Made by a program: the position numbers and the translations under genes
Notes under the pieces: generated by a model
Told to the model about the DNA's origin: nothing
What the model saw: only the letters and a program-made list of their open reading frames with translations
The model's database searches: none
In this document: positions 1,296 to 18,280 of the stretch, piece after piece
Position numbering within the stretch: the first letter of the stretch is position 1
How the letters are laid out: each line of letters starts with the position of its first letter
Assembly (NCBI GenBank): GCA_963765245.1
Contig: CAVXVP010000020.1
Span: 152,865 to 216,864 of the forward strand
DNA length: 64,000 nt
Reading direction: 5' to 3'
From: an uncultured Chloroflexia bacterium
GTDB taxonomy: Bacteria > Chloroflexota > Limnocylindria > Limnocylindrales > CSP1-4

Positions 1296-2646
1296 GTGGA
1301 TCTGCCGAACACCCCGCCCTTCGCGATCCGCGCCCGAATCCTGACGCCGTTGGCGGCCGGCGGGACCCGCCACGAGCCCGACGGCCTGCTCGTGGTCGAC
1401 GAGACACGGTCGGATCGGATCCGTCGGCGCCTCCGCCGACGCCACGCCTGACGTCCTCGATGCTGCGATCGACCTGCGGCCGTGGGTGCTGCTCCCCGGC
1501 ATGGTCGACACGCACGCGCATCTGCCCCAGCTCCCCAATGCGGGGCTGGGTTTCGCCCTCGACCTGCTGACCTGGTTGGAGCGCGTCACCTTCCCGACCG
1601 AGCGCTCGTGGTCGGATCCCACGGTCGCCGACCGACTCGCGCCGGCGATCTTCGAGGCATTCGCAGCCGCGGGCACGACGACGGTCGTCGGCTACGGGAC
1701 GGTCTACGCCGCGGCGATGGACGGCGTCTTCGCAGCGGCCGAACGGCACGGCATCCGGGCGATCCTCGGCAAGGTGATGATGGATCGCGGGACGTACGAC
1801 CCGGTCATCGAGCCGTCGACGATCCTCGAGCGCTCGCTGCGCGAATCTGCCGACCTGATCGCGCGCTGGCACGGCGCCGACGACGGCCGCCTCGGATACG
1901 CCGTCACGCCTCGGTTCGCCGTTTCGTGCTCAGCCGAGATGCTGCGCGAATCGGCGACGCTGGCCCGCGAGACGGGCACTTGGTGGCAGACGCACGTCTC
2001 GGAGGATCCCGGCGAGATCGCGGAGGTGCGCCGGCTCTTCCCCGAGGCACGCGACTACGTGGACGTCTACGACCGCGCCGGCGGGCTCGGGCAGCGAACG
2101 GTGCTTGCCCACGCCATCCACCTGTCGGACCGGGAGCTCGCGCGGCTGCTCGAGACGGGGACACGGGTCGCCCATTGCCCGGCCTCGAACCTGTTCATCG
2201 GTGCCGGCGTGATGCCGCTCGCCCGCTACCTCGAGGCCGGGCTCTCGGTCGGGCTCGGCTCGGACGTCTCCGGCGGGCCGGAGGCATCGATCTTCTCGGT
2301 GATGCGTGTCGGCGCGTATGCGCTGATGGCCCGACGCTCGTTCGCTGGCGAGGAGGGCGCGGTCCTCGACCCTCTCGACTGGCTGCGGATGGGGACGCTG
2401 GCGGGCGCCCACGCACTCGGCCTGGACGCGAGCATCGGGTCGCTCGAGACGGGCAAGGAGGCCGACCTGATCGCCGTCGACCCATCGTTCGCGGCCGCTC
2501 TTCCAGGTTCCCCGGCCGACGATGACCCGCGTGACCTCATGAGCCGGCTCATCTTCCGGGCACACCCCGACATGGTCCAAGGTGCGTGGGTGCGCGGGCG
2601 GCGTCTCGACGGGCCAAGCCGGCACGGAACGGCGGCCGCCACGTGA
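1296..2646 (+). CDS. guaD: Guanine deaminase (frameshift near 1405)
   Basis: DTHAHLPQ, PRFAVSC, QTHVSE, LAHAIHL, HCPASN, GLGSDV; GTG 1296 frame (MDLPNTPPFAIRARIL) joins ORF 1486..2646. Confidence 0.9.
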
Positions 2647-4247
2647 CCGAGCACGCTGACCTGCTGATCAGCGGCGGGACCGTCGTCGACGGGACCGGCG
2701 CCCCGGGGCGACCCGCGACGATCGCCGTCGTCGATGGACGGCTGCGCCTCCTCGACGCCACGGAGCCACCGCCCGAGAACGTCGGGCAGCGGATCGACGC
2801 GACCGGCAAGGTCGTCGCTCCCGGGTTCATCGACCTGCACAGCCATGGCGGCCTGATGATCCTGGCCGACGGCCGGCACGAGCCGAAGGTTCGCCAGGGC
2901 GTGACGACCGAGCTGGTCGGCGTCGACGGCAACGGGTTCGCGCCGTTCGAGCGTCGTGAGGACCTCGAGGCGTTCGTCGAGCTCGACAGCGGGCTCGACG
3001 GCCGGCCGGCGATCGACTACGACTGGACCTCGGTCGCGAGCTACCTCGACCGCTACGACGGCACGGTGAGCCTCAACGTCGCGACCCTGGTCGGGAATTC
3101 GCAGCTCCGGATCGCCGCACTTGGGCTGGGACGACGTCCCGGCCGACGCCGCGTCGCTCGCCCGGATGCGTGGCGTGCTCGCCGACGCGATGGCCGATGG
3201 CGCGTTCGGGCTCAGCTCGGGACTCGATTACCCGCCCGGTGGGTACGCGACGACCGAGGAGCTCGCCGTGCTCACGGAAGAGGCCGGCCGGCACGGCGGC
3301 TTCTACCACACCCACGTTCGGTATCCGCTCGGCGACCGCTACCTCGATCCGTTCCGCGAGGCGATCGAGATCGGCCGGCGGGCCGAGGCTCCGGCCCACA
3401 TCACGCACTTCTACCACCGCGAGACACACCCCGGCCCACCCGAACCGATGCTCGCGCTGGTCGACGACGCGCGCGCCGAAGGGCTCGACGTCACGTTCGA
3501 CACCTACCCCTCGGAGTGGGCGTCGACGCGACTGCTCATCCAGCTCCCGCAGTGGATCCAGGCCGGCGGACCGGGACCCGCTCAAGGAACGTCTCGCGGA
3601 CAGGACCGCACGCGACCGCGTCCGTGCCGAGTTCACGGCCCGTGGCGCGTCGTACGCGAGCGCGGCGGGCTGGGCGGATGTCCGGCTCGGTGCCTTCCGC
3701 CGTCCCGAGAACCTGCGCTGGGAGAGCCGGACCGTCGCGGACGTGATGACCGAGACCGGCCACGACGCGCTCGATGTCATCTGCGACCTGCTCCTCGCCG
3801 AGGACCTCGGCATCAGCCAGGTGACGAGCGGTCCCGCGGCGGCCAGCCTGCCGTTGTTCGTCGCCCACCCGATCGGGATGGTCGGGACCGACAGCACGTT
3901 CCTCGGCGAGAAGCCCGGCCCGCGGACCTACGGCAGCTTCCCGCGCATCCTCGGCCAGTTCGTGCGCGACGAGGCGCTCCTCTCGCTCGAGGAAGCCATC
4001 CGCAAGATGACCTCCGCGCCGGCGGCGCGGCTCGGGTCTGCGCGACCGCGGTGTCCTCCAGGAGGGGGCCGTGGCAGACATCGTGGTGTTCGATCCGGCC
4101 ACGGTCCGCTCGACCGCGACGTACGACGAGCCGCGCTCCTACCCGATCGGCATCGAGCAGGTCATCGTGGCCGGCACGCTCGTGGTCGCGGACGGAGTGC
4201 ATACCGGCGCGACGCCGGGACGCGGCCTCCGTAAGGGCCGCGACTGA
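2643..4247 (+). CDS. N-acyl-D-amino-acid deacylase family amidohydrolase (frameshifts near 3121, 3580, 4040)
   Basis: LLISGGTVVDGTG, PGFIDLHSH, GLSSGLDYPPG, YHTHVR, HITHFY, PRTYGSFPR, LEEAIRKMT, GRGLRKGRD*; GTG overlaps the guaD stop. Confidence 0.85.
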
Positions 4248-4262
4248 CCGAGGCCGGCAAGG

Positions 4263-4991
4263 TCACGCGGGCGAGGGCGATCCCTCGATGTCGTGGACCG
4301 GCTGGACGTCGACCTCGATGTCCCTCGCGAGCCTCTCGGTCCGGCGCTGCTCCGCGAACATCCGCTCGCGGGCGCGGTCGATCGAGTCGGCGAGGCTCGA
4401 TTCCGGACCCGGGCTCGCCCAGCCCATCGACAGGTGCAGGGCGATCGCGCCCGATTCGAGCCAGAGATCGCATGCCTGGCGGACGCGCTCGACGAAGTTG
4501 ATCGCCTCGACCTCGCCGGTCTCCGGGAGCAGGACCCCGAACCGTGACGGCCCGATCCGTGCGAGGTGGTCTGCGGCGCGGGCGTTCCGGCTGAGCGCGT
4601 CGGCCAGCGCCGGCAGGACGCGGTCGCCGGCCTCACGACCGAGGGTGGCGACGAGGCGCTCGATCCCATCGAGCTCGATGATGACCACGGTCGCCGTGTG
4701 CCGGTAGCGGCTGACCCGGGCATCCTCGTCGGCCACGAGGCGGTTCCACTCGTTGAGGGTCAGCAGTCCGGTGAGCGGATCCGTCCGGCTGGTCGTCGGC
4801 ACGTTCCCGGGCACCGTGGCGATGGGCGACGAGACGCCGGACGCGATGGGCCGGCGCATGACGCCGTCGTCGTATGACCCGCTCGAACGACGCGGACCCT
4901 TGCGCCGCATCGACCGGATCACGGCGACGGTGATCAGGATCAGGTTCACGGCGACGAGGGCGATGATCAGGATGACGATGTTCTCGTTCAT
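4263..4991 (-). CDS. Membrane-anchored GGDEF-domain protein with degenerate active site
   Basis: N-terminal TM (IVILIIALVAVNLILITVAVI); DPLTGLL, VIIELDG, ARIGPSRFGVLLPET, LSMGWA; TATGCT -10 nine nt upstream of ATG. Confidence 0.85.
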   Translation of the reverse strand: MNENIVILIIALVAVNLILITVAVIRSMRRKGPRRSSGSYDDGVMRRPIASGVSSPIATVPGNVPTTSRTDPLTGLLTLNEWNRLVADEDARVSRYRHTATVVIIELDGIERLVATLGREAGDRVLPALADALSRNARAADHLARIGPSRFGVLLPETGEVEAINFVERVRQACDLWLESGAIALHLSMGWASPGPESSLADSIDRARERMFAEQRRTERLARDIEVDVQPVHDIEGSPSPA

Positions 4992-5041
4992 GGACCGCGG
5001 AGCATAGCGGCGAGACCCCCATCTGACCCTCTTTCCGGGCC

Positions 5042-5095
5042 CCTCCCGGACCACTTCTCGGTGCCGCCTCGCACCGCCGGGTGGGGTCCGGGAGG
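5042..5095. other. Long GC-rich inverted repeat/hairpin in the divergent intergenic region
   Basis: CCTCCCGGACC (5042-5052) / GGTCCGGGAGG (5085-5095) enclosing CGGTGC / GCACCG. Confidence 0.6.
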
Positions 5096-5141
5096 ATGGG
5101 GTGCGGAACAGTGCAGAGAGCCCGTCCCGGGCTATCGCCGG

Positions 5142-5165
5142 TGATAGAGTCAGTCGCCATGGAGG
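5142..5165 (+). promoter_or_regulatory. Extended -10 promoter and RBS of the xdh/purine operon
   Basis: TG-A-TAGAGT at 5142-5150; GGAGG at 5161-5165, 7 nt before TTG 5173. Confidence 0.55.
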
Positions 5166-5172
5166 ACGGCCC

Positions 5173-7528
5173 TTGCCCGAGTTGACGACCCGGACCGAGC
5201 CGGCCGATGCCGTCGTGATCCAGCCCGGCACGATCGCTCCCGGACGTGCCCGCGGGGCGGCTCCGCTCCGTCGCGAGGGTCCGGCCAAGCTGACCGGCGC
5301 CGCCAAGTACGCCGACGACCTGGTCTTCCCGGGCGCCTGGTACGGGGCGACGATCCGCTCGACCGATGCGCACGCCACGTTCGACGGCGCTCGACCTCGA
5401 CCCCGGTTTCGACTGGTCGTCGGTCGTGGTCGTCACCGCGGCCGACATCCCGGGCGACAACATCGTGAGCTCGATCAAGGCCGACCAGCCGATCCTGGTC
5501 CCGCTCGGCGGCGAGATCCAGCACCACGCCGAGCCGCTGGCCCTGCTGGCCGCCCCCGACCGCGCGATGCTGCGCGCGGCGCGCCACGCCGTTCGCGTCC
5601 GGACCGCGCCACTCCCGGCGGTCTTCGACCCGCTCGCCTCGGACCACGTCTTCGCCGCCTACGAGCTCGGCTCGGGCGACCCCGATGCGGCGTTCGCCGC
5701 CGCCGACCTCGTGCTCGAGGGCGAGTACCGGGTCGGCCACCAGGAGCAGCTCTACATCGAGAACAACGCGATGATCGCGGTCCCGAGCGAGGACGGCGGG
5801 GTGACCGTCCACGGCTCGCTCCAGTGCCCGTACTACGTCCACACGGCGCTCAAGCGCGGCCTCGGCATCGACGATCGCCAGGCGCGCGTCGTCCAGGCCG
5901 AGACCGGCGGCGGGTTCGGTGGCAAGGAGGAGTTCCCGTCGGTCATCGCGCTCCACGCCGCGCTCCTGGCCGGGAAGGCCCAGCGACCGGTGCGGATGAT
6001 CTACGACCGCCACGAGGACCTCGCGGCGACCACCAAGCGCCATCCCGGCGATCGTCCGCCACCGGACCGGGGTGACGCGCGACGGCCGGCTGATCGCCCA
6101 GGACATCGAGGTCGTGATGGACGGCGGCGCGTACTGCACGCTGACGCCGGTCGTCCTGTCGCGCGGCGCGATCCACGCCGGCGGCCCGTACCGCTGCCCG
6201 AACGTGCGCATCCGCGCCCGCGCGACGCGGACCAACACGCCACCGAACGGGGCGTTTCGCGGGTTCGGGGCGCCGCAGACCGAGTTCGCGGCCGAGACCC
6301 ACCTCAACCGCATCGCCGAGGCGCTCGACCTCAGCCCGCTCGAGATCCGGCGGCGCAACGTCTACGTCCTCGGCGACACGACGCCGACCGGCCAGGTCCT
6401 GCGCAGCAGCGTGGCCGGCGAGGAGGTCCTCGAGCGGGCCGCCGAGGCCGGCGAGTTCGTCCGCCTGCGGGCGCGCAACGACGCGGAACGGGTGCGGCGG
6501 GCCGGTTCGGGCGCGGTCCCGGGCTCGCCGCTGCGGACCGGGCGGGAACGCGTCGCCAGCGGCGTCGGGCTCGCGCTGGCCTGGCACGGCGCCGGGTTCA
6601 CCGGCTCGGGCGAGGTCCAGCTCGCGTCGGTCGCGTCGCTCGAGCTGACCGGCGAGGGCGCGATCCGCATCCTGACCGCCTCGACCGAGATGGGGCAGGG
6701 GACCAAGACGATCTTCCCGCAGCTCGTCGCCGACGCCCTCGGCGTCCCGATGGACGACGGTCGAGATCGCGCCCCAGGACACCGCGTTCGTGCCCGATTC
6801 CGGGCCGACCGTCGCGTCGCGGACCGCGATGGTCGTCGGCGGGCTGCTGATCAAGGCGGCCCAGCGACTCCGCGCCCAGGTCGAGGCCGCGACCGGCGGC
6901 ACGTTCGCGGCGACCTACCGCGACTACGCCAAGACAAGCGGCGCGCTCCGCATCGACCAGCGCTTCGAGCCGTATCCGGGCGTCGGCTTCGACGACGAGA
7001 CCTACCGCGGCGACGCGTACCCGGCCTTCGGCTGGGCGGCCTGCGTCGCGAGCGTCGACGTCGATCTCGATACCGGCGAGGTGCACGTCCGCGACGTCGT
7101 CGCGGCCGACGACATCGGCCGGGTCATCCACCCGGTCCTGGCCGAGGGCCAGGTCGAGGGCGGCACGCTCCAGGCGGTCGGCTACGCCACGATCGAGGAG
7201 ATCAAGCTGCGCGACGGGCGCTACCTCAACGACCGGCTCGCGACCTACATCATCCCGACCTCGCTCGACGCGCCGCGGATCACGACGATCCTCGTCGAGG
7301 CGCCGTTCGACGCCGTGCCGCACGGCGCCAAGGGCGTCGGCGAGCTGCCGATGGACGTCGGGGCGCCGGCCGTGATCGCGGCGATCGCGGATGCGACCGG
7401 GGTCTGGATCGCCGACCTGCCGGCGAGCCCGGAACGGATCCTGGCCGCGCTGTCGGGCGTCGCCGGCGTCGCGCCGCTGCCGCCGGGCGCCTCGGAACCG
7501 GCCGTCGCCGGCTGGAGCCGGCCGATGA
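5173..7528 (+). CDS. Xanthine dehydrogenase family molybdopterin-binding subunit (frameshifts near 5395, 6050, 6760, probably ~7500)
   Basis: KLTGAAKYADD, HQEQLYIE, GGGFGGKE, AFRGFGAPQ, STEMGQG, GQVEGG, KGVGELP; purine cluster context. Confidence 0.9.
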
Positions 7529-7998
7529 CCGCCTTCCAGTTCACGGTCAACGCGACCCCCGTCGAGGTCGACGTCCCGGGCATGCGCCGGCTGCTCGACG
7601 TCCTGCGCGAGGACCTCGCCCTGACCGGCACGAAGGAGGGCTGCGGCGAGGGCGAGTGCGGCGCGTGCACGGTCCTGCTCGATGGCGCGCCGGTCGATTC
7701 GTGCCTCGTCCCGATCTGCCAGGTCGAGGGCTCGAGCGTCGCGACCGTCGAGGGCCTGGCGCCCGAAACGAACACGCTCGACGCGCTCCAGACCGCCTTC
7801 CTCGAGACCGGCGGCGCGCAGTGCGGGATCTGCACGCCGGGGATGCTGATGGCCGGTCGCGCCTATCTCGATGCCGGCGGCGGCCCGGACGACGACGCGA
7901 TCCGCGAGGCGATCGCCGGCAACCTGTGCCGCTGTACCGGCTACACCAAGATCGTCGAAGCGATCGCACGCGCGGCAAGCCAAGGGAGATCGCAATGA
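7525..7998 (+). CDS. Xanthine dehydrogenase family 2x[2Fe-2S] subunit
   Basis: GTKEGCGEGECGACTV, QCGICTPG, GNLCRCTGY. Confidence 0.92.
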   Translation: MTAFQFTVNATPVEVDVPGMRRLLDVLREDLALTGTKEGCGEGECGACTVLLDGAPVDSCLVPICQVEGSSVATVEGLAPETNTLDALQTAFLETGGAQCGICTPGMLMAGRAYLDAGGGPDDDAIREAIAGNLCRCTGYTKIVEAIARAASQGRSQ

Positions 7999-8249
7999 CC
8001 GAAGACCCCGATCGGATCGCGGTGCCGACCAACGGCCGGAAGCCGCATCCCGTCGCGCCGCTGGAGCCGCTGCGCGGAGAGCCACCGACCGCCGAGCCGC
8101 CGCCGGACAAGGCGCCGCGCATCTTCGACCCGACCGACCCGGCGCTCCTCGGCGCGGTCTCGCCCCGGAAGCTGGCTGTCGGCTTCGGGATCGTCGCCTC
8201 GCTGGTCCTGCTCGCCGTCGGACGGTCGCGTCTCCGCCGAGGCCGCTGA
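7995..8249 (+). CDS. Small Pro-rich protein with C-terminal TM anchor
   Basis: ATGA overlap with the 2Fe-2S gene, GGGAG RBS; 84 aa ending LAVGFGIVASLVLLAVGRSRLRRGR. Confidence 0.65.
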   Translation: MTEDPDRIAVPTNGRKPHPVAPLEPLRGEPPTAEPPPDKAPRIFDPTDPALLGAVSPRKLAVGFGIVASLVLLAVGRSRLRRGR

Positions 8250-8255
8250 GCGCCG

Positions 8256-9112
8256 ATGCCGGTCGAGCCGCCGGTCACCAGCCCGCGCGCCCTGGCCGAG
8301 GCGTATGCGGTGCTCGCCGACGGACCGGCCCGGCCGATCGCGGGCGGCACCGACCTGATGGTCGCGCTGACCGGCGAGCTCGGTGAGCCGCCCGACCGGA
8401 TCCTCGACCTGTGGGGGCTCGACGAGCTGCGCGGGATCGCCCTCGACGGCGACACGATCAGCCTCGGTGCGCTGACGACCTACACGGAGATCCGGCGCTC
8501 TGCGCTGTGCCGCGAGCATCTCCCCGTGCTGGTCGAGGCGGCCGCGACGATCGGCGCGGCCCAGATCCAGAACCGCGGGACGCTGGGCGGCAACATCGCC
8601 AATGCCTCGCCGGCCGGCGACACGCTGCCGGTCCTGCTCGCGGCCGACGCGTCGTTCGTTCTCGGCTCGGCCCGCGGCGAGCGGACGGTCCCGGCCGCCG
8701 AGTTCTGGCCGGCCTACCGCCAGACCGCGCTGGCGCCGGACGAGCTCCTGCTCCGCATCCGGATCCCGCTCCTGGCCGGCCGCGAGCTGCGCTTCCGCAA
8801 GGTCGGGACGCGCCGCGCCCAGTCGATCAGCAAGGTCGTGGTCGCCCTGGGCTGGCGCGACGGCACGCCCGCGGCGCCCTGGACGGACGTGCGGCTGGCG
8901 CTCGGTTCCGTGGCGGCCACGCCGATCCGTGCCCGCGCCACGGAGGCCGCCATCGAGGGCCGGCCGCCGACCCCGAGACGGCCGACCTGGCGGCCGAGAC
9001 GCTGGCCGCCGAGCTGCACCCGATCGACGACGTCCGCTCGACCGCCGAGTACCGCCGGATCGTGGCCGCGCGCGTCGTCCATCGGCTGATCCGCGAGGCG
9101 GGTGGCTGGTGA
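8256..9112 (+). CDS. Xanthine dehydrogenase family FAD-binding subunit (frameshift near 8975)
   Basis: PIAGGTDLMV, IGAAQIQNRGTLGGNIANASPAGD, FRKVGTRRAQSIS, PIDDVRSTAEYRR. Confidence 0.92.
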
Positions 9113-9688
9113 TGACCGAGGCGCCGTCTCCCGCGGACCTCTCGATCGACCGGCTCGACGTCATCGCGCCGGGCGCCTTCGCGGCCGCCGTCGCGCCGCT
9201 GTTCGAGGGTGCGCGGCTCTTCCTCGGACGCCTGGCGATGGCCCGGCCGTTCGGATCGGTCGAGGAGCTCTTCGCCCGCGCACGCGAGATCGCCCACGCG
9301 ATGCCGCTCGACGAGAAGATCGAGCTGATCGATGCGCATCCGCGTCTCGGCGCGCCGCCGGCCGACGTCTCGGCGCTCTCGTTCGTCGAGCAGGGCTATC
9401 AGCGCGACGCCACGGAACGGGAAGCCGAGGCAGCCGCCGCCGAGGCCGAGCGCGACGCACATCGCCACGGAGCTCGACCGGCTCAACGCCGCCTACGAGG
9501 CCCGTCTCGGCTTCCGCTACTGCGTCTTCGTCGCCGGCCGGTCGCGCGCCGAGCTGCTCCCCGAGATGACCGCCGCGCTCGACGCGGACCGCGACGACGA
9601 GATCGAGCGCGCGCTTGATGCCGTCATCGACATCGCCCGCGACCGGTATGCGACCCTGACCGCAGCAGCAGCGGAGGATCCGGCGTGA
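9112..9688 (+). CDS. uraD: OHCU decarboxylase (frameshift near 9460)
   Basis: LFEG, RPF, LIDAHPRLG, SFVEQG, LNAAYEARLGFRYCVFVAGR, IARDR. Confidence 0.88.
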
Positions 9689-10531
9689 TCGAACTCGGCG
9701 CGAACCGCTACGGCAAGGCGGCCATCCGGCTCGTTCGCGTCGCGCGCGGCCCGGGCGGTGACCGCGTCCGCGACCTGACCGTGGCGATCGCGCTCGAGGG
9801 CGACTTCGACGCGGCCCACACGGACGGCGACAACGCGAACGTCATCGCCACCGACACGATGAAGAACACGGCGTACGTGTTCGCCAAGGATCACCTCGAC
9901 GGCTCGATCGAGGCCTACGGCCGTGCCCTGGCCGAGCATTTCCTCGCCGAGCCACAGGTCGACGTCGCGACCGTCAACATCCGCGCCCACCACTGGGCCG
10001 CGATCGACGTCGCCGGGACGCCTGCCCCGGACGCGTTCGTCCGCGGCGGGGAGGGGACACGGGTCGCGACCGTCAGCGCGTCGCTCGGCGGCGTGCTCGT
10101 CGAGGCCGGCGTCGAGGACCTGATCGTGATGAAGACCGGCCGCTCCGCGTTCAGCGGCTTCCCGCGCGACCGCTACACGACGCTGCCCGAGACCGAGGAC
10201 CGCCTGATGGCGACGAGGCTGACCGCCGATCTGGCGCTACGGCGCGCCCGACCTCGATTTCGACGCCACGTTCGGGGCCGTCCGCGCGACACTGCTCGAG
10301 GTCTTCGCCGATCACGACAGCGCGTCGGTCCAGGAATCGATCTGGATCATGGCCCGGGCGATCCTCGAGCGGCACGAGGAGATCACCGAGATCCGGATGG
10401 TCCTGCCCAACCTCCACCACTGGCTGGTCGACCTGTCGCCGTTCGGGCTCGAGAACGACCGCGAGATCTTCACCCCGACGACCGAGCCGCACGGCCTGAT
10501 CGAGGCGACGGTCCGCCGCGGCGAGGGCTGA
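9685..10531 (+). CDS. pucL: Urate oxidase (uricase) (frameshift near 10230)
   Basis: NRYGKAAIRLVRV, VIATDTMKNT, MKTGRSAFSGF, SVQESIW, LPNLHH, PHGLIEATV. Confidence 0.92.
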
Positions 10532-10532
10532 C

Positions 10533-12134
10533 GTGACTGGTACGGCTCGCGATCGAACGGGCTGCCTCCCGGCATCGAGCTCCGGCGTGAGCCGGTCCCG
10601 GGCGCCGACCGGATCCTGACCCACGACGCGCTGGCGTTCGTGGCCGACCTCCAGCGCCGCTTCGGCCCGCTGCGGCTCGAGCTCCTGCAGCGCCGGAAGG
10701 AGCGCCAGGTCGAGCTCGAATCGGGCGCCCGGCCCGACTTCCTGACGGCGACCCGGGAGGTCCGCGAGGCGGACTGGACCGTCGCCCCGGCACCGCCCGA
10801 CTTCGACGACCGGCGGGTCGAGATCACCGGGCCGGCCGAGCCCAAGATGCTCATCAACGCCCTCAATTCGGGCGCCCGCGTCTTCATGGCCGACCTCGAG
10901 GACTCGCTGTCGCCGACGTGGGCCAACGTCGTCGGCGGCCAGGCGGCGCTCGCAGACGCGGTCCGCCGCACGCTCACGTTCAATTCGCCCGAGGGCAAGG
11001 CGTACCGGCTGAACGACGAGATCGCCACGCTCGTCGTCCGGCCACGCGGCTGGCACCTCGTCGAGTCGGGGATGCTCGTCGACGGCGTGCCGGTCTCGGC
11101 CAGCCTGTTCGACTTCGGGCTGTTCCTGTTCCACAACGGCGCCGAGACCCTGCGGCGGGGGAGCGGGCCGTACCTCTACCTCGCCAAGCTCGAGTCGCAC
11201 CACGAGGCGCGGCTCTGGAACGAGGTCTTCATCCACGGCCAGGTCGCGCTCGGGATCCCACGCGGCTCGATCCGGGCGACCGTCCTGATCGAAACGATCC
11301 TCGCCGCCTTCGAGATGGACGAGATCCTGTACGAGCTGCGCGAACACGCGGCCGGGCTCAACGCCGGGCGCTGGGACTACCTGTTCAGCGGGATCAAGAA
11401 GCTGCGGTCGTGGCCCGAGCTGGCCGTCCCGGATCGGTCACAGCTGACGATGACCGTCCCGTTCATGCGCGCCTACACGGAGCTGCTCGTGCGGACCTGC
11501 CACCGCCGCGGCGCGCACGCGATCGGCGGCATGGCCGCGTTCATCCCGAACCGCCGCGACCCGGCCGTGACCGAGGTCGCGCTGGCCAAGGTCCGCGACG
11601 ACAAGGAGCGCGAGATCCGGCGACGGCTTCGACGGCACGTGGGTGGCTCACCCCGACCTCGTCCCGGTCGCCATGGAGGTCTTCGATCGCGTCCTCGGCG
11701 ACCGGCCGAACCAGAAGGAGCGGCTGCGCGAGGACGTCTCCGTCAGCGCGGCCGAGCTGCTCGACCTGCGCGTGCCCGGCGGCGCGGTCACGGAGGCCGG
11801 GATCCGGGCCAACATCCGGGTCGCGCTGGCCTATCTCGATTCGTGGCTGCGCGGCGTCGGCGCGGCCGCCATCGACAACCTGATGGAGGACGCCGCGACC
11901 GCCGAGATCTCGCGCTCGCAGCTCTGGCACTGGCGGACGCACGGCGTCGCCCTCGCCGACGGGCGCGTGTTCGACGAGGCGCTCTACGCCTCGATCCGGG
12001 ACGAGGAGCTCGCCCGTCTCGGGGGCGCGACGGAAGGTCGCCTGTCCGAGGCGGCCGGCCTGCTCGATCGCCTCGTCCTCGACGACGACTTCGCCGAGTT
12101 CCTGACGCTGCGGGCCTATTCGCTCTTGGAATAG
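10533..12134 (+). CDS. aceB: Malate synthase A (frameshifts near 10545 and 11627)
   Basis: [65 protein letters not shown]. Confidence 0.93.
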
Positions 12135-12146
12135 CGCTGGGGACGC

Positions 12147-12167
12147 GGCCCGATCGTGGCTCGGGCC
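12147..12167. terminator. Possible bidirectional terminator hairpin between convergent aceB and hydantoinase
   Basis: GGCCCGA-N7-TCGGGCC; no strong U tract. Confidence 0.4.
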
Positions 12168-12182
12168 TCCGCCTTCTCGGGT

Positions 12183-12240
12183 TGATGCTTGATTTGGGGC
12201 GCTCGCGTTCGCCTTGATTCGGTATGCCAATGGGCGGCAT
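12183..12240 (+). repeat. Bipartite repeat copy A
   Basis: TGATGCTTGAT (12183-12193) + 30 nt + ATGCCAATGGGCGGCAT (12224-12240). Confidence 0.9.
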
Positions 12241-12259
12241 ATCCGCGGGTGGCGCTCGT

Positions 12260-13664
12260 TCAAGAGCCGACGGCGCCGCGTTCGACGTAGGCCCCGGCGC
12301 CGCGCCGGCCGACGAATTCGCCGTCGCGGATGACCGCCCGTCCCCGGACGAAGACGCCGCGGACCGCGCCGGAGACCTCGAGGCCCTCGTACGGCGTGTA
12401 GTCGCTCGTGTGATGGAGATCGGCGGCGCGGATGGTGCGGTGCGCGGCCGGATCGAACAGGACGACGTCGGCGTCGCGCCCGACCTCGATCGCGCCCTTG
12501 GTCGCCAGGCCGAACCGCCGGGCGGGCGTCGTCGCCAGCAGGTCGACCATCCGCTCGAGCGTGATCCGTCCCTTGGCGACGCCCTCGCTGTAGACGATCG
12601 CGAGGAGCGTCTCGATGCCGGGTGCGCCGTTGCTGATCTGGTCGAACGAGACGCCTGCCCCGGCCTCGGCCTTTTCGACCGCCACCCGATCTGCGACGTG
12701 GTCGGTGGCGACCAGGTCGAGCGATCCGTCGGCCAGCCCTTCCCACAACGCGTCGCGATCGGCGGCGGAGCGCAGCGGCGGCGAGATGACGAAGCAGGCG
12801 CACGAGACCGGATCGGGGTCGTCGTAGCGCTCCTCGGTCAGAACGAGGTAGTGCGGGCAGGTCTCGGCCGAGACGCGAACGCCGGCCGCCTTGGCTCGTC
12901 GGACCTCGTCGAGCGCCGCGGCCGACGAGAGGTGGACGACGTGGACCGGCGCGTCCGCCATCCGCGCGAACGCCAGCGCTCGGGCGGTCGCCACGGCTTC
13001 GACATAGCTCGGTCGCGTCGTCGCGTGGTAGCGAGGCGCGACGTCACCACGCGGCCAACGCAGCGCTGACGGCGGCGTCGAGCAGCACCGGGTCCTCGCA
13101 GTGGACCTGGAGCATCCCGCCGTGGCGGCTCATGACCCCCATCGCGTCGAACAGCCGAGCGTCCGGCAGCCGGAAGTCGAAGACCATGAACGCCTTGGAG
13201 GTCGCCACGCCCGCGTCGATCGTCGCGGGCAGCTCCGCCAGCGGGTCGTCGCAATGCCCGCTGACCGCGAGGCTCAGCCCGACATCGATCGCGGAGTCGC
13301 CGTCGGTGGCGGCGCGCCATTCGCGGACACCGGTCAGCAGCGAGCGCTCGGCCGCGGGCGACGATCCCGTCCCCGGGTTGTTGAACGACAGGAAGGTCGT
13401 GGTGCCGCCGAAGGCCGCTGCCACCGAATCCTGGAAGAACCGATCCGGTTCCGCGTCCGACGCCACGCGCGTGTGCGTATGGACGTCGACGACACCGGGG
13501 AGGACGAGCAGCCCGGTCGCGTCGATCACCTCGTCGGCGCCAGCCGCACGACCACTCAGGTCCGGCTCGATCGCGGTGATCCGCCCGCCATCGATCGCGA
13601 CATCCGCGATCCGCGAGCCACCGGCGGTCACGACCGTCCCGCCGCGAACGACAAGCGCGGTCAT
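12260..13664 (-). CDS. Dihydropyrimidinase/hydantoinase family cyclic amidohydrolase (frameshift near 13050)
   Basis: VRGGTVV, PGVVDVHTH, AAAFGGTT, SKAFM, QVHCED, VVHLS, AETCPHYL, ATDH, NGAPGIE, IEVGRDADVVLFDP. Confidence 0.88.
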
Positions 13665-13698
13665 CCAGTTACCCCGTCACCCACATCACCGCGGCGTT

Positions 13699-13757
13699 AT
13701 GCCGCCTATTGGCATCAAAGAAACGGAACCTCGCCAACTGGCCGAAATCAAGCATCA
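13699..13757 (-). repeat. Bipartite repeat copy B (inverted relative to A)
   Basis: ATGCCGCCTATTGGCAT (13699-13715) + 31 nt + ATCAAGCATCA (13747-13757). Confidence 0.9.
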
Positions 13758-13774
13758 ACCGCGCGCTGGTGCGG

Positions 13775-14197
13775 TCACTCGACCTCGCGGATCGAGATCG
13801 CCTGCGCGCCCTCCCACAGGCAGCGCCGGCCCATCTCGCGGAGGCGGTCGTCCCAGCCGTCATCGGCGACCACCGTCGCGAAGTGATTGGCCGCCAGCTG
13901 CCCCACCTTCGACGCCGTCGTGCAGCCGCCGTACGGGAAGAAGATCTCGCACTCGCTGATGCCGCCCGGGTAGATCGCCAGCTGGCCGGGCGCCGGATGC
14001 GAGGTGTGGTTCTCGTAGTCGAGACCCGGCCGGAAGTCGCCGAACGGGATCCACGTCGACTCGCCCGTCCAGCGACAGTGGATCAGCTTCGACTCGATCG
14101 GCAGCATGTGCCGGATCGCCTCGATCGTCCGGGGCGCGGCGGCCTCCCAGCGGGCGCTAAAGTGGAGGTCGCCGACGATGATCTGCAACGTTCCCAT
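13775..14197 (-). CDS. DUF3830 family protein (cyclophilin-like fold)
   Basis: APRT...LP...IHCRWTGE...ENHTSHPAPGQLAIYPGGISECEIFFPYG...ASKVGQLAANHFAT. Confidence 0.8.
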   Translation of the reverse strand: MGTLQIIVGDLHFSARWEAAAPRTIEAIRHMLPIESKLIHCRWTGESTWIPFGDFRPGLDYENHTSHPAPGQLAIYPGGISECEIFFPYGGCTTASKVGQLAANHFATVVADDGWDDRLREMGRRCLWEGAQAISIREVE

Positions 14198-14211
14198 CGG
14201 TGGAGGATAGC

Positions 14212-14592
14212 GTGGCGCAGGGCGCGAATCACCCGGTCCCGACCATCTCGACCCACGTCCTGGACACGGAACGTGGGATGCCGGCGGCCGGCGTCCACGT
14301 CACGCTCTACCGGATCGCCGACGATGGGCGTCCCTTTCGCCTGACCCAGGCTCTCACCGACGCCGACGGCCGGGTCGCCGACCTGCTCGACCGGCCGCTG
14401 ACGGCGGGCGATTACCGGCTCGAATTCGCCCTCACCCATGAGCTCGATGACGCGGCGCCCGGAGCGCCCCCACCCTCGGATCCGTTCTTCAGGCGCCTCA
14501 CCGTGGATCTGCGGGTGACCGACACGTCACGCAGCTACCACGTCCCGTTGTTGCTGGCGCCGTACTCGATGACGACCTACCGCGGCAGTTAG
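14212..14592 (+). CDS. uraH: 5-hydroxyisourate hydrolase (transthyretin-like)
   Basis: TISTHVLDTERGMPAAGV, TDADGR, GDYRLEF, PFF, YHVPLLLAPYSMTTYRGS; exact start uncertain. Confidence 0.93.
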   Translation: MAQGANHPVPTISTHVLDTERGMPAAGVHVTLYRIADDGRPFRLTQALTDADGRVADLLDRPLTAGDYRLEFALTHELDDAAPGAPPPSDPFFRRLTVDLRVTDTSRSYHVPLLLAPYSMTTYRGS

Positions 14593-16664
14593 CGCAGGAT
14601 CGCGAAGGCGTCGATATCGACCCGTGGGTGGTGCAGGGTCCCGACCACGACCGCCCTGACCGTATGCGCACCCGAGGTCGACCACGATCGTGCCGCGACC
14701 ACGACCCGTGGCACGGAGCTCGATCGGTGCAGGCTGACGGTCCCGACGTACGCGCCATCGACGTAGAGCTTCAGGCTGCCGCGAGTCGGACCCTTCGGGG
14801 AGATCAGCGCGAAGGCACGGCCGGTGAACCGGAACGTGGCGGCGGCGCCGGCGCGCGAGGCGTAGTGGGTCTGACCGCCCGAGGCCGATGACGTCGAGTA
14901 CGTCCGCCACGACCTGTTGTAGGTGACCCTCGAGTTCGTGTCCTGGTAGCGCAGCGGGGCGATCGCCGGCCCGGTTGCGAAGGCTCCCCAGTTACCGGCT
15001 CCGTCACGCGCTCGGTCGCGGAAGCCATACGCGAGCCCGAACCTCAGCGTCCGCGAGGTGCTCCGGGCCGTGGTCGAGCCGATGGCCGTGACCCACGGTC
15101 CGACACCTGTCTGCGTCTGGAGGTTGTAGGCGGCCACTCCGTTCAGATCGTCGGTGGCGCTCGCCCAGCCGACGCGGGTCGGGATGCTGGAGCTGCCCAT
15201 CGTCGTGCCCACCGTGAATCCGAAGCTCGTCGGGGCGTTGGCGGTCGGGCCCGTGCTGTCGAGCGCCTTGTAGGCATCGACCACCCGGCCCGTGACGGTC
15301 ATCCCGGCCGTTGCCGCGTCGGGCTTGCCGGTCGCCAGCACGCGTGCCTTCAGCCCGTTCGGATCGGCGGCCAGAGCGGGAAAGACCGAGGCGACCAGGG
15401 CGGCCGTGCCGGTGACGTGTGGTGCCGCCATCGAGGTGCCGTCCATCCAGGCCCACCCTTGCGGGTACCCGTCTTCCGCCGGCACCGAGCTGAGGATCCC
15501 TTCGCCCGGCGCGGCGATGTCGATGGTCTTCTTGCCGTAGTTCGAGAACCCGGCCATGCCCCCCGTGTTGTCGATGGCAGCGACCGACAGGATGTTCGGC
15601 AGATCGAACGCCGCCGGCAGGTCCGGGAGCGGGTTCGTGTCGCTGTCGTCGCTGTCGTTGCCGGCCGCGGCCACGAAGAGCATCCCCGAGGTCTTGATCG
15701 CGTCGTACAGAGGCAGCGCCTTCTTCGGGTCCCCGTAGGCGCCCCACGAGGCATTGACGATGTGGACCCCGAAGGACTTGGCGTACGCGATCGCGGCGAT
15801 CGCCTGGGAGTCGCGCCCACAGTCCCTGGGCTTGTCGGCGCTGATGAACTTCAAGGCCATGATCGAGACGCTCGGAGCGACGCCGACGACGCCGATGCCG
15901 TTCAGCGATCCGGCGATCGTGCCGGCGACGTGGGTCCCGTGCCCGTCCTGGTCGTCGTCGTGGACGCTGTTGTCGTTGTGGCAGAAGTCCCAGCCGTGGA
16001 CGTCATCGACGTAGCCGTTGTTGTCATCGTCGATGCCGTTGGTTTCGCGACCGTCGCCCGATTCGCCGGGGTTCGTCCAGGCACGGTCGGCAAGGTCGGG
16101 GTGAGTGAAGTCGACGCCGTCATCGATGAGCGCGACGACCGTTGACGGGTCACCGGTCGTGACGCCGAGCGCCTGGCGGGCGTCGATGTCGGCATCGGGT
16201 GAGCCCTCCGACGCGGGATAGCCGCTGCTCTGGCCCAGGTTCTCGAGTCCCCACAGCTCGTCCCACAGCGGCTCCCCGGTCGGATCCGCATCGAGGAAGC
16301 GTCGATGGTCGACGCTCACGCTGAGGACGTCCGGGTCGGCCTGAAGTCTCGCGACCACGTCGCGCGCGTGCCCGGTCGGGGCCTGGAGCGCGACGGACCG
16401 GGTATTCGGCAGGTTCTTGGAGTGCCGGGTGCCGGTCGCGCGCACCGTCGACGAGCGCGCGGCCGGTGTCGTGCCTGGCCGGAACGTGACGATCAGGCTG
16501 TCCGGGTCGTCCGCGGTCGGTCGTTGCCACGCCGGACCGACGTGCCGCAGCTTGGGCGTGCCGGGACCCGGCGACGCGGCCTGGGCGGGGATGACGATCA
16601 CGACAGCGAGGAGGACGGCCGCCGCGACGGCGAACGGACGAGATGCGGAGCGGGCCGGGGACAT
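14589..16664 (-). CDS. Secreted S8 (subtilase) serine peptidase with C-terminal FN3-like and beta-rich domains
   Basis: Signal peptide; VALIDDGVD, HGTHVAGTI, AAAGND, GTSMAAPHV catalytic triad. Confidence 0.92.
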   Translation of the reverse strand: MSPARSASRPFAVAAAVLLAVVIVIPAQAASPGPGTPKLRHVGPAWQRPTADDPDSLIVTFRPGTTPAARSSTVRATGTRHSKNLPNTRSVALQAPTGHARDVVARLQADPDVLSVSVDHRRFLDADPTGEPLWDELWGLENLGQSSGYPASEGSPDADIDARQALGVTTGDPSTVVALIDDGVDFTHPDLADRAWTNPGESGDGRETNGIDDDNNGYVDDVHGWDFCHNDNSVHDDDQDGHGTHVAGTIAGSLNGIGVVGVAPSVSIMALKFISADKPRDCGRDSQAIAAIAYAKSFGVHIVNASWGAYGDPKKALPLYDAIKTSGMLFVAAAGNDSDDSDTNPLPDLPAAFDLPNILSVAAIDNTGGMAGFSNYGKKTIDIAAPGEGILSSVPAEDGYPQGWAWMDGTSMAAPHVTGTAALVASVFPALAADPNGLKARVLATGKPDAATAGMTVTGRVVDAYKALDSTGPTANAPTSFGFTVGTTMGSSSIPTRVGWASATDDLNGVAAYNLQTQTGVGPWVTAIGSTTARSTSRTLRFGLAYGFRDRARDGAGNWGAFATGPAIAPLRYQDTNSRVTYNRSWRTYSTSSASGGQTHYASRAGAAATFRFTGRAFALISPKGPTRGSLKLYVDGAYVGTVSLHRSSSVPRVVVAARSWSTSGAHTVRAVVVGTLHHPRVDIDAFAILR

Positions 16665-16741: not shown

Positions 16742-16762
16742 CGTGACACGCTAGATGTCACG
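16742..16762. promoter_or_regulatory. Palindromic operator-like site between divergent genes
   Basis: CGTGACA-N7-TGTCACG. Confidence 0.4.
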
Positions 16763-16784
16763 GGTATGCCCCACCGTTCGGGTC

Positions 16785-18070
16785 ATGCACGCGACCGTCC
16801 TTCCGATCAGCACCATCCCGCCCGCCGGCGACGCGACCGAGCCGACGACCCGTGTCCGCCTCGACGGGGAGCGGATCATCGTCGAGCGCCTCGTCGTCCA
16901 CGATCCGGCGCTTGCGGCGTTCCTTGCCGAGCGCCCGGCCGACGACCGACCGGCCCTTCTCGAGCGCGGGCTCCGGATCGGCCTGCTGGCCCTCCAGGAT
17001 GCCGGCGTCACGGTCAACGTCGACGTCGTCCGGGCCGAGTTCGAGAAGCTCATGCGCCAGGCCGAATCGGTCAACGAGAAGGCCGCCCTCGCGCTCGAGG
17101 GGACGTTGCGCGCCAACTTCGCCGATGGCGACGGCCGTCTGCCGCGCACGCTCGAGAAGTTCCTCGGTGACCGCGGTGCCCTCAAGACGATGGTCGAGGA
17201 GCTATTCGACGAGAAGAAGCGCGACAGCGCGATCGGGCGGATCGGCACCATGCTCGAGCGCTATTTCGACGGTGACGCCTCCAAGCTCGCCCACCTGCTC
17301 GACCCGACGCGGCTCAACTCCCCGATGCACCAGTTCCGCCAGGAGATGACCGCCGGCTTCAAGTCGCTCGAGGAGCGGCTGGTCGCGATCGAGGCGGCGG
17401 CGGCGGCTCGTGGCGCCGAACGCGCACGATCCGCGGCCAAGGGCGGCGACTTCGAGGACCTCCTCGAGGCGATGCTGGCCGACCTCGCCCGCGGCGCCGG
17501 CGACCTGCTCGACCGGACCGGGACCGAGGCCGGTGCCCTGCTCAAGTCGAAGAAGGGCGATTTCGTCCTGTCGCTGGACGCGCGGGTCGCCCGCGGCTGC
17601 GACGTCCGGGTCGTCATCGAGGCCAAGGACCGGCCGATGTCGATGCGCGCGATGCGCGACGAGCTGCGCGAGGCCAAGGAGAACCGGGGAGCGTGCGTCG
17701 CGGTCGCGATCTTCACGCCGTCCCACGCTCCGTCCGGGGTCGCGCCGTTCAACCTGGTCGGTGACGACGTCTACTGCGTCATCGATCCAGACGATCCGGA
17801 CCCGGCGACCCTCGAAGCCGCGATCCGGCTCGCCCGCCTGCTCGCGCTCGCGTCGCTGGTCGAGCACGAGGTCGAGGTCGACGCCGCGGCGATCGCGGCC
17901 GCGCTGACCGCCATCCGCGAGCAGCTCGAGGTCGTTCGCCAGCTCAAGGCCCAGTTGACGTCGATCTCGACCGCGACCAAGGCGGTCTGGACCGGTCTCG
18001 ACACGATGCGCTCGAACATCCTGACCCGGGTGATCGAGGCGAAGGGGAGCTCCGCACGCAGGCCGGATGA
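16785..18070 (+). CDS. Coiled-coil protein with PD-(D/E)xK-like nuclease domain (RmuC/DUF2130-like); probable frameshift near 18041
   Basis: Long helical region, then AKGGDFED...KKGDFV...VVIEAKD; corrected C-terminus ...EGELRTQAG*. Confidence 0.65.
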
Positions 18071-18073
18071 CTC

Positions 18074-18194
18074 CCTCGGCGGCCAGGCGTGTCAGTCCGA
18101 AGGCGCCCGGGAGCACGAGAGCGAGCGCACCCCAAGGTGCGTGAGCGAGCGCGCGGACCGGGCAACGCGCGGATGGCGCGTCTGGCCGCCGAGG
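18074..18194. other. ~120-nt multi-stem palindromic intergenic element
   Basis: CCTCGGCGGCCAG / CTGGCCGCCGAGG outer stem extended by G-U pairs; inner GCCCGG/CCGGGC and GCGCACC-CCAA-GGTGCGT. Confidence 0.65.
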
Positions 18195-18280
18195 ACTATC
18201 TGTACCCCGGACACCATGACTACACCTAATGGGACCAAGGGGCCGTAGGCGCACTCGGGGATCGGGCGCAGATTGCCTGA

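Follow-up and report, generated by a model that had tools for sequence, protein, structure and literature searches.

A purine catabolic gene cluster at positions 1299-14592 of a 64,000-nucleotide stretch of DNA (hereafter, the window; G000:C20:152865-216864, contig CAVXVP010000020.1) is probably a working purine-to-malate catabolic island of a soil bacterium of the class Limnocylindria (Chloroflexota), a reading to which we assign a probability of roughly 55%. In this island, a hydantoinase-type cyclic amidohydrolase, a D-aminoacylase-type amidohydrolase of the Amidohydro_3 family (Amh3), and a small protein of the Pfam family DUF3830 would replace, one for one, the allantoinase AllB, the allantoate amidohydrolase (AllC/AAH), and the (S)-ureidoglycine aminohydrolase AllE. 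The ureide pathway is a textbook route of nitrogen recovery from purines, whose enzymes were found piecemeal by comparative genomics and which still has gaps in archaea and many soil phyla. An earlier note made from the window sequence had proposed that the three proteins may form a noncanonical route from allantoin to glyoxylate; comparative evidence supports this proposal and refines it to a slot-by-slot replacement, which is the new element here.

According to curated family assignments, the upper pathway would lead from guanine to xanthine (GuaD), urate (xanthine dehydrogenase, XDH), 5-hydroxyisourate (uricase), 2-oxo-4-hydroxy-4-carboxy-5-ureidoimidazoline (OHCU; UraH), and (S)-allantoin (UraD). 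The hydantoinase-clade enzyme would then take over from AllB and open allantoin to allantoate. Amh3 would do the work of an M20 allantoate amidohydrolase, taking one carbamoyl group off allantoate and yielding ureidoglycine along with CO2 and NH3. DUF3830 would substitute for the Mn-cupin AllE, splitting ureidoglycine at its aminal C-N bond into ureidoglycolate and NH3. The conversion of ureidoglycolate to glyoxylate may be spontaneous or may be carried out by DUF3830 or Amh3, and malate synthase A would act as the sink, consuming glyoxylate and acetyl-CoA. A more far-reaching proposal is that DUF3830 constitutes a new metal-independent family that uses a cyclophilin-like/Pictet-Spenglerase-type barrel and an invariant Glu for aminal C-N cleavage and that urate-degrading Chloroflexota and haloarchaea rely mainly on it, in place of AllE, to process ureidoglycine, so that the lower pathway of Limnocylindria would run wholly on three noncanonical enzymes. 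We put this forward tentatively, at somewhat less than even odds.

The earlier note had listed guaD, the three xdh subunits, pucL, uraH, uraD, and aceB; all of them were found close to where it had placed them, and the same families are present in the genus-mate G008, a short-read genome with a collinear cluster (locus L009; ∼80% DNA identity) in which all genes are intact. The presence of the hydantoinase-type enzyme, the D-aminoacylase-type enzyme, and DUF3830 was confirmed by family models on the G008 orthologues. The note had also seen no AllB or PuuE, AllC or allantoicase, AllE, or AllA in the cluster, and a genome-wide search likewise retrieved none of them. This search covered the host assembly G000 (76% complete) and four genus-mates (91-95% complete). 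No match was obtained in these five genomes for allantoicase (PF03561), AllC (TIGR03176; E ≤ 0.001), AllA (PF04115), or AllD (PF02615); for PuuE (TIGR03212), there was nothing above the cut-off, only subthreshold deacetylase matches; and for AllE (TIGR03214; Mn bicupin), the best matches were subthreshold cupins of ∼20 to 23 bits, where 200 bits are needed. In the two Limnocylindria families sampled, AllE was found neither in the 16 genomes of the host's own family (f1) nor in the 15 of the other (f3). The AllB model (TIGR03178) gave nothing above its cut-off in the five genomes, and in the three genus-mates with the gene on one contig, its best match was the cluster hydantoinase itself, below the cut-off. 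M20 proteins were found neither in the five genomes nor within 10 kb in any of 79 Limnocylindria loci (79/79). The allantoicase model was silent in the control genomes, yet the search works, given that it found two positive genomes among the 301 Chloroflexota described below. An AllA-like PF04115 protein of the genus-mate G282 was not counted as a pathway gene; it lies on a separate contig among P450, FGGY-kinase, and GntR genes.

In the sampled urate-degrading Chloroflexota, DUF3830 and canonical AllE were not found together. In one evenly drawn set of 301 Chloroflexota genomes, uraD was present in 51, DUF3830 in 62, and canonical AllE above its cut-off in 5. The 51 uraD-positive genomes comprised 44 with DUF3830 and no AllE, 2 with AllE and no DUF3830 (G119 and G133), none with both, and 5 with neither, at least one of the latter being a fragmented genome whose genus-mates carry DUF3830; as only two AllE-positive urate degraders were sampled and related genomes are not independent, these counts are consistent evidence rather than a test. 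The earlier note had suggested a co-occurrence analysis, and its outcome, together with the AllB-clade or M20 enzymes that occupy the corresponding slots elsewhere, agrees with the pathway that it proposed. In both AllE-positive urate degraders, the AllE gene adjoins an M20 gene (AllB<-AllE<-M20 in G119 and AllE->M20->xdh in G133), and it is this slot beside M20 that DUF3830 holds in G090, G205, and Haloferax volcanii. AllA is missing from 49 of the 51 uraD-positive genomes, including G119 and G133, and both of the allantoicase-positive Chloroflexota (G213 and G308) also carry DUF3830, indicating that DUF3830 tracks the absence of AllE and not that of AllA or allantoicase (Alc).

The genomic context points in the same direction. 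We collected 80 species-level Limnocylindria loci related to the window and counted neighbors within 10 kb. The arrangement uraH <-> DUF3830 -> hydantoinase is essentially invariant, with a divergent uraH in 79/80 loci and a hydantoinase at ≥50% coverage in 75/80, and in most of the loci uraD, uricase, aceB, and xdh are found within this distance in several differing arrangements. Nine purine clusters from other Chloroflexota families also contain DUF3830, accompanied either by an AllB-clade enzyme and M20 or by a hydantoinase and M20; in clusters with xdh, uricase, uraH, and uraD, the first combination is seen in L110-L114 and the second in L107, L120, and L124. Three M20 proteins of AllB-type clusters were tested and scored 511 to 541 bits on the allantoate amidohydrolase model NF006775 (cut-off, 479). 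A Gemmatimonadota-labeled bin has the order uraD-uraH <-> DUF3830-AllB-AllC-xdh-aceB, and plasmid pHV3 of H. volcanii has xdh alongside M20-DUF3830-permease-hydantoinase-uraD-pucL-uraH, the permease being one for urate. Given that the partners of DUF3830 change while the pathway stays constant, DUF3830 belongs to the pathway and not to one partner enzyme, and its co-occurrence with a bona fide allantoate amidohydrolase suggests a likely role after allantoate hydrolysis.

The 140-amino-acid DUF3830 protein is a clear member of its family, since the G008 protein scores 89 bits on PF12903 against a cut-off of 26. At 50% identity, the family falls into ∼770 clusters. Two of its residues, Glu62 and Gly71, are invariant, Asn63, Trp43, Tyr89, and Asn104 are nearly so, and there is a deep conserved core. 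An AlphaFold (AF2) model with a predicted local distance difference test (pLDDT) score of 97 superposed on the solved DUF3830 structure 3KOP with a Z score of 18.8 and a root mean square deviation of 2.0 over 135 residues, on residues 179-317 of KslB with a Z score of 17.6, and on residues 1-141 of McbB with a Z score of 16.4, while cyclophilins reached ∼10.5. As modeled, DUF3830 thus has the fold of the catalytic β-barrel of the McbB/KslB Pictet-Spenglerases, cyclophilin-like and not a cupin. By sequence profile, a search of the PDB retrieved 3KOP only and matched neither McbB nor KslB. As ureidoglycine is an aminal and ureidoglycolate a hemiaminal adduct of glyoxylate, the chemistry proposed for DUF3830 would be at least related to that of KslB and McbB, the fold serving as a lead only. 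These two enzymes use a catalytic Glu to join an amine to a 2-oxo acid or an aldehyde through a C-N bond (PMC12012969). Our literature search found no paper naming DUF3830, and both this term and two locus tags of the H. volcanii cluster are absent from the text and supplement of the paper that treats its urate genes, in which one step after allantoate is left unassigned (Pfeiffer and Dyall-Smith 2021, PMC8305020, supplement S9.g). The only prior work we found that bears on function is the idea, for H. volcanii, that the hydantoinase acts as an allantoinase.

A different step could be assigned to the same protein. DUF3830 might be a urea-releasing lyase, either an AllA analogue, possibly one that splits ureidoglycine into urea and iminoacetate, or an allantoicase analogue that converts allantoate to ureidoglycolate and urea, with Amh3 or M20 then serving as a ureidoglycolate amidohydrolase. 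The near absence of AllA from uraD-positive Chloroflexota (49/51) and the presence of allantoicase in just 2 of 301 genomes would leave room for such an enzyme, and on a Paracoccus plasmid the M20 and AllE genes beside DUF3830 would read as a full AllC-AllE-lyase series. For H. volcanii, the M20 protein was assigned as a ureidoglycolate hydrolase, with the step from allantoate to ureidoglycolate left open (PMC8305020, supplement S9.g). Proteobacterial clusters of hydA, an FAD oxidase, and DUF3830, joined by RidA in Rhizobium, fit the release of urea from an oxidized N-carbamoyl amino acid, and the fold is related to that of enzymes handling carbinolamines and iminium ions. However, the AllE-type genomes G119 and G133 are also without AllA, so that AllA is not missing specifically where DUF3830 occurs; the allantoicase-positive G213 and G308 both carry DUF3830; and those M20 proteins of DUF3830 clusters that were tested score above the equivalog cut-off for allantoate amidohydrolase, which means that allantoate is already accounted for there. 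Urease is found in only one of the five genus genomes (alpha subunit at G000:C33:7062-7394), the only other match being a weak one on a hydantoinase paralogue, and it was not found in the genus-mates G010, G006, and G004. Members of the genus thus seem to differ in their use of urea, and urea nitrogen would be lost unless, e.g., urea carboxylase and allophanate hydrolase, which were not searched, recover it; this mildly favors ammonia-releasing over urea-releasing steps. We therefore regard a urea-releasing DUF3830 as unlikely.

Alternatively, DUF3830 might not be a pathway enzyme but might assist the cyclic amidohydrolase or M20 as an accessory or ligand-binding partner, e.g., an activator, a specificity subunit, or a channeling subunit, with the later steps being spontaneous or encoded elsewhere. 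Ureidoglycine and ureidoglycolate are chemically labile, and DUF3830 directly adjoins a hydantoinase in Limnocylindria, Azospirillum, Aureimonas, and Paraburkholderia or an M20 gene in H. volcanii, G090, G205, and L103. There is also a precedent, as Escherichia coli AllB is known to be activated by a partner protein (PMC10163214). But the partner varies by lineage (AllB clade, hydantoinase clade, or M20), the invariant Glu62-Asn63 pair and the deep conserved core look like those of an active site, and the nearest structural relatives of known function are enzymes, making an accessory role distinctly improbable. We also rejected the narrower idea that DUF3830 coevolves with one hydantoinase lineage, because it accompanies AllB-clade, hydantoinase-clade, and haloarchaeal enzymes and because the DUF3830-linked hydantoinases are not monophyletic. 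A role for DUF3830 as an aminal-cleaving pathway enzyme remains the reading that we prefer.

The cluster hydantoinase, as represented by its G008 orthologue, belongs to the D-hydantoinase/dihydropyrimidinase family (429.5 bits on TIGR02033; cut-off, 393.25) and falls short of AllB (295 bits on TIGR03178; cut-off, 357.85); against the PDB, it scored ∼325 bits with D-hydantoinases and ∼190 to 200 with allantoinases. The residues H62, H64, K157, H188, H244, and D321 (HxH, Lys, His, His, and Asp) do not vary among 30 orthologues. A maximum-likelihood tree placed the enzyme outside the AllB clade (98/98 support) and within a hydantoinase clade whose other members include the CN_hydrolase-linked paralogue of G008 and proteobacterial hydA genes. 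Its putative allantoinase role is proposed from position, by analogy with the AllB-clade enzyme that occupies the same cluster slot in other Chloroflexota families. The hydantoinase-like protein HVO_B0302 of H. volcanii has likewise been predicted to be an allantoinase on the basis of gene clustering (PMC8305020, supplement S9.g). G008 encodes two further hydantoinase paralogues (L134, G008:C134, 4387-8132; L135, G008:C158, 5391-8771), suggesting that the cluster copy is not the sole candidate for dihydropyrimidine or hydantoin metabolism. Both of them adjoin a luciferase-like (FMN/F420-type) oxidoreductase, and one also adjoins a CN_hydrolase carbamoylase; these paralogues and oxidoreductases may make up a noncanonical reductive pyrimidine or hydantoin route.

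Amh3 matches Pfam Amidohydro_3, scoring 184 bits on NF006560 (cut-off, 340) and 224 bits against the Alcaligenes faecalis D-aminoacylase 1M7J. When compared with the features of N-acyl-D-amino-acid deacylases of the COG3653/PRK09061 type (Amidohydro_3 fold, HxH, Cys96, His220, His250, Asp366, and the Arg/Tyr carboxylate site), it keeps the HxH, His, His, and Asp ligands and the PR/YP (Arg/Tyr) carboxylate site and has Asp in place of Cys96. Its distribution is complementary to that of M20, since Limnocylindria clusters contain Amh3 and no M20, while other Chloroflexota clusters contain M20 and no Amh3. Amh3 still adjoins uricase and aceB where guaD and xdh lie elsewhere (L076, L079, and L088), which argues against a role in guanine deamination. 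Allantoate is formally N-carbamoyl-ureidoglycine, an N-carbamoyl amino acid. Given that its hydrolysis is an N-deacylation of an amino acid, the reaction type of the Amh3 family, Amh3 is a plausible stand-in for allantoate amidohydrolase.

Another possibility is that the hydantoinase, DUF3830, and Amh3 form a module for hydantoins, dihydropyrimidines, or N-acyl-D-amino acids that merely lies beside the purine genes, with allantoin being an end product or being degraded by unrecognized enzymes elsewhere, or that the whole island is decaying. The two hydrolases do score best on dihydropyrimidinase and D-aminoacylase models, and DUF3830 is found in nonpurine hydantoinase clusters of Proteobacteria. 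In contrast, linkage to uraH, uraD, uricase, and aceB outlasts rearrangements in the 80 species-level loci, in several Chloroflexota families, and in one archaeon; the malate synthase of the cluster needs a source of glyoxylate; and separate hydantoinase paralogues exist, one of them beside a CN_hydrolase carbamoylase. We give this possibility very little credence, with the question of decay being taken up below together with the frameshifts.

Several observations weigh against the proposed one-for-one replacement. The roles of all three proteins are assigned from comparative evidence, and G000 is only 76% complete. The cluster hydantoinase passes the dihydropyrimidinase cut-off, keeps the usual Tyr/Ser/Asn ring-binding motifs, and groups with the CN_hydrolase-linked paralogue, and its sequence gives no sign of a preference for allantoin. 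Within the aligned ranges of the models, the catalytic Glu of McbB and KslB appears to map near DUF3830 position 96 and not to the invariant Glu62. Eighteen of the 62 DUF3830-positive Chloroflexota are without uraD, suggesting that the family is not confined to ureidoglycine, and DUF3830 is also seen in nonpurine contexts: Azospirillum, Aureimonas, and Paraburkholderia have it with hydA, an FAD oxidoreductase, and a DHDPS (dihydrodipicolinate synthase)-like gene, while Rhizobium and L100 have it with racemases. Finally, on a plasmid of Paracoccus pantotrophus (L131, 7504-11554), two tandem divergent DUF3830 genes adjoin allE and M20, which breaks strict exclusivity; no other locus that we saw combines DUF3830 with canonical AllE.

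The settings of DUF3830 in Proteobacteria deserve a description of their own. In Azospirillum p4 (L126), Aureimonas pAU20b (L130), and Paraburkholderia pBN1 (L128), DUF3830 is found with hydA, a large FAD oxidoreductase, a DHDPS-family protein, a GntR regulator, and an amino acid ABC transporter, while its neighbors on Rhizobium pRL10 (L127) are two amidohydrolases, an Asp/Glu racemase, and RidA. These putative catabolic modules (L126-L128 and L130) show no linkage to urate genes. The substrates of the DUF3830 family probably span a broader range of ring-opened ureido compounds. Among the Chloroflexota, G308 (L107/L108) has a hydantoinase-AllC-xdh-uraH-uraD-uricase-DUF3830 cluster as well as a separate AllB-allantoicase pair and thus appears to have two parallel lower ureide routes.

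The assembly G000 has a size of 3.88 Mb, a GC content of 70%, and 38 contigs. According to their record titles, the closest public loci are from Chloroflexota of the class Limnocylindria, many of them from long-read soil metagenome-assembled genomes, and nearly all close matches in a metagenome protein search were Limnocylindria sequences. A Pfam scan of open reading frames recovered every family that the earlier note had named, but in pieces. The coordinates of these parts were obtained by tblastn of the intact G008 orthologues onto the window, and the genes are as follows.

1299..2646, strand +: guaD (guanine deaminase); Pfam Amidohydro_1; the G008 orthologue passes NF006679; tblastn pieces in two frames, with one +1 frameshift near 1407.
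2658..4247, strand +: Amh3 (Amidohydro_3, D-aminoacylase-type metallo-amidohydrolase; proposed allantoate amidohydrolase stand-in); frameshifts near 3120, 3581, and 4036.
4263..5378, strand -: GGDEF diguanylate-cyclase-domain protein; Pfam GGDEF; position kept in relatives.
5140..7506, strand +: xdh molybdopterin subunit; Ald_Xan_dh_C, MoCoBD_1, and MoCoBD_2 in four frames; frameshifts near 5395, 6046, and 6753.
7525..7998, strand +: xdh 2Fe-2S subunit; Fer2 and Fer2_2.
8256..9112, strand +: xdh FAD subunit; FAD_binding_5 and CO_deh_flav_C; single-base deletion near 8966.
9112..9688, strand +: uraD (OHCU decarboxylase); PF09349; frameshift near 9430.
9685..10531, strand +: pucL (factor-independent urate oxidase); PF01014; G008 orthologue, 297 bits on TIGR03383 (cut-off, 168); frameshift at 10228.
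10565..12134, strand +: aceB (malate synthase A, putative glyoxylate sink); MS_TIM-barrel; orthologue, 724 bits on TIGR01344; frameshift near 11610.
12260..13664, strand -: hydantoinase/dihydropyrimidinase-clade cyclic amidohydrolase (proposed allantoinase stand-in); orthologue, 429 bits on TIGR02033; frameshift near 13077.
13775..14197, strand -: DUF3830 (140 amino acids, intact; proposed (S)-ureidoglycine aminohydrolase stand-in); 94% identical to the G008 protein matching PF12903.
14200..14592, strand +: uraH (5-hydroxyisourate hydrolase, intact); PF00576 in the orthologue; divergent from the DUF3830-hydantoinase operon.

About 12 frameshifts split 8 of the 13 genes of the G000 cluster; the earlier note had overlooked these, as well as the GGDEF gene. 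Taken at face value, they would speak for a decaying island. However, alignment against four relatives showed that 11 of the 12 junctions have one extra base in G000 and the twelfth one missing base, and the coding pieces of the split genes retain 78 to 91% amino acid identity and a high GC content at third codon positions (GC3), with the shifts being absent from the orthologues. The same bias is present in the flanks, where ∼16 of 18 frame breaks in 85 comparable kb are also +1, and along contig C20 as a whole, where ∼29 frameshifts were detected in 100 kb with +1 strongly dominant. The density is ∼0.9 per kb in the cluster versus at least 0.2 per kb in the flanks, the latter being a lower bound since only regions with orthologous open reading frames could be scored. 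The gene rpoB on the same contig is intact, while hydantoinase and dihydroorotase paralogues on other G000 contigs are likewise fragmented. Given that a bias toward single-base insertions at sites that are not long homopolymers resembles long-read consensus error and not decay, the frameshifts are technical, and we rejected pseudogenization of the cluster in view of this bias along the contig, the intact rpoB, and the intact orthologues. Protein predictions from this assembly are fragmented as a consequence, and its completeness of 76% probably underestimates the true value.

Two further genes are located in or next to the cluster. The GGDEF gene lies between Amh3 and xdh on the opposite strand, and it has the same place in many relatives; it is possibly regulatory, and a link between cyclic di-GMP and purine catabolism is possible. 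Beyond uraH, a conserved protein of 428 to 497 amino acids without a Pfam match is encoded at 16755-18248 (+), between S8 subtilase genes at 14589-16664 (-) and 18348-20576 (+). It adjoins the purine cluster in genus-level relatives and not in more distant ones, and we rejected it as a pathway member because it has no Pfam match, accompanies the S8 protease genes, and is absent from the more distant clusters.

If the proposed replacement is true, it would provide a first function for a Pfam domain of unknown function with a solved structure (3KOP), add new substrate specificities to two heavily studied amidohydrolase families, and correct the automatic annotations “dihydropyrimidinase” and “D-aminoacylase” in Limnocylindria and haloarchaea. 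The three proteins are small and apparently suited to expression in E. coli, coupled assays with allantoin and AllB/AllC that detect ammonia, urea, and glyoxylate are established, and H. volcanii is a genetically tractable host with a DUF3830 gene in its urate cluster.

Among known systems, the closest in layout are the E. coli-type AllB-AllC-AllE (ureidoglycine aminohydrolase, UGlyAH)-AllA pathway and the Chloroflexota AllB-AllE-AAH clusters of G119 and G133. Shared with them are the upstream xdh, uricase, uraH, and uraD genes, followed by a cyclic amidohydrolase, an allantoate step, and an aminal cleavage, and in several clusters DUF3830 is found in the position of AllE beside the allantoate amidohydrolase gene. 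In contrast, the ring-opening enzyme of the window belongs to the hydantoinase clade and not to the AllB clade, the second enzyme is an Amidohydro_3 D-aminoacylase-type TIM barrel and not an M20 peptidase, the third protein is a 140-amino-acid cyclophilin-like barrel and not an Mn bicupin, for which an AllE-like role and not family membership is proposed, and AllA and AllD are missing.

Each of the three proteins also has relatives of known function from which it departs. Like D-hydantoinases (TIGR02033; PDB 1YNY, 1K1D, and 1NFG), the cluster hydantoinase has all metal ligands, including the carboxylated Lys, and the motifs KAFMVY, ISPPLR, and SNGAPG, but it is set in urate catabolism, with no dihydropyrimidine dehydrogenase or β-ureidopropionase nearby. 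Amh3 resembles N-acyl-D-amino-acid deacylases (1M7J and the Bordetella N-acyl-D-glutamate deacylase 3GIP) at ∼220 bits, with the catalytic set and carboxylate motifs kept; it differs from them in having Asp for the metal ligand Cys96, in ∼65 unaligned residues between two aligned blocks, and in being a fixed member of purine clusters, found only where the M20 allantoate amidohydrolase is absent. The DUF3830 barrel superposes on McbB and KslB (PDB 3X27 and 9NSC) far above the cyclophilin level, but it is a single domain that lacks their helical bundle domain, and having the same fold is no proof of having the same function. The haloarchaeal counterpart on H. volcanii pHV3 (HVO_B0299-B0310) retains M20 and has no Amh3, but it shares with the window a hydantoinase-like gene, uraD, pucL, uraH, an xdh-like operon, and a DUF3830 gene, which there lies directly downstream of M20.

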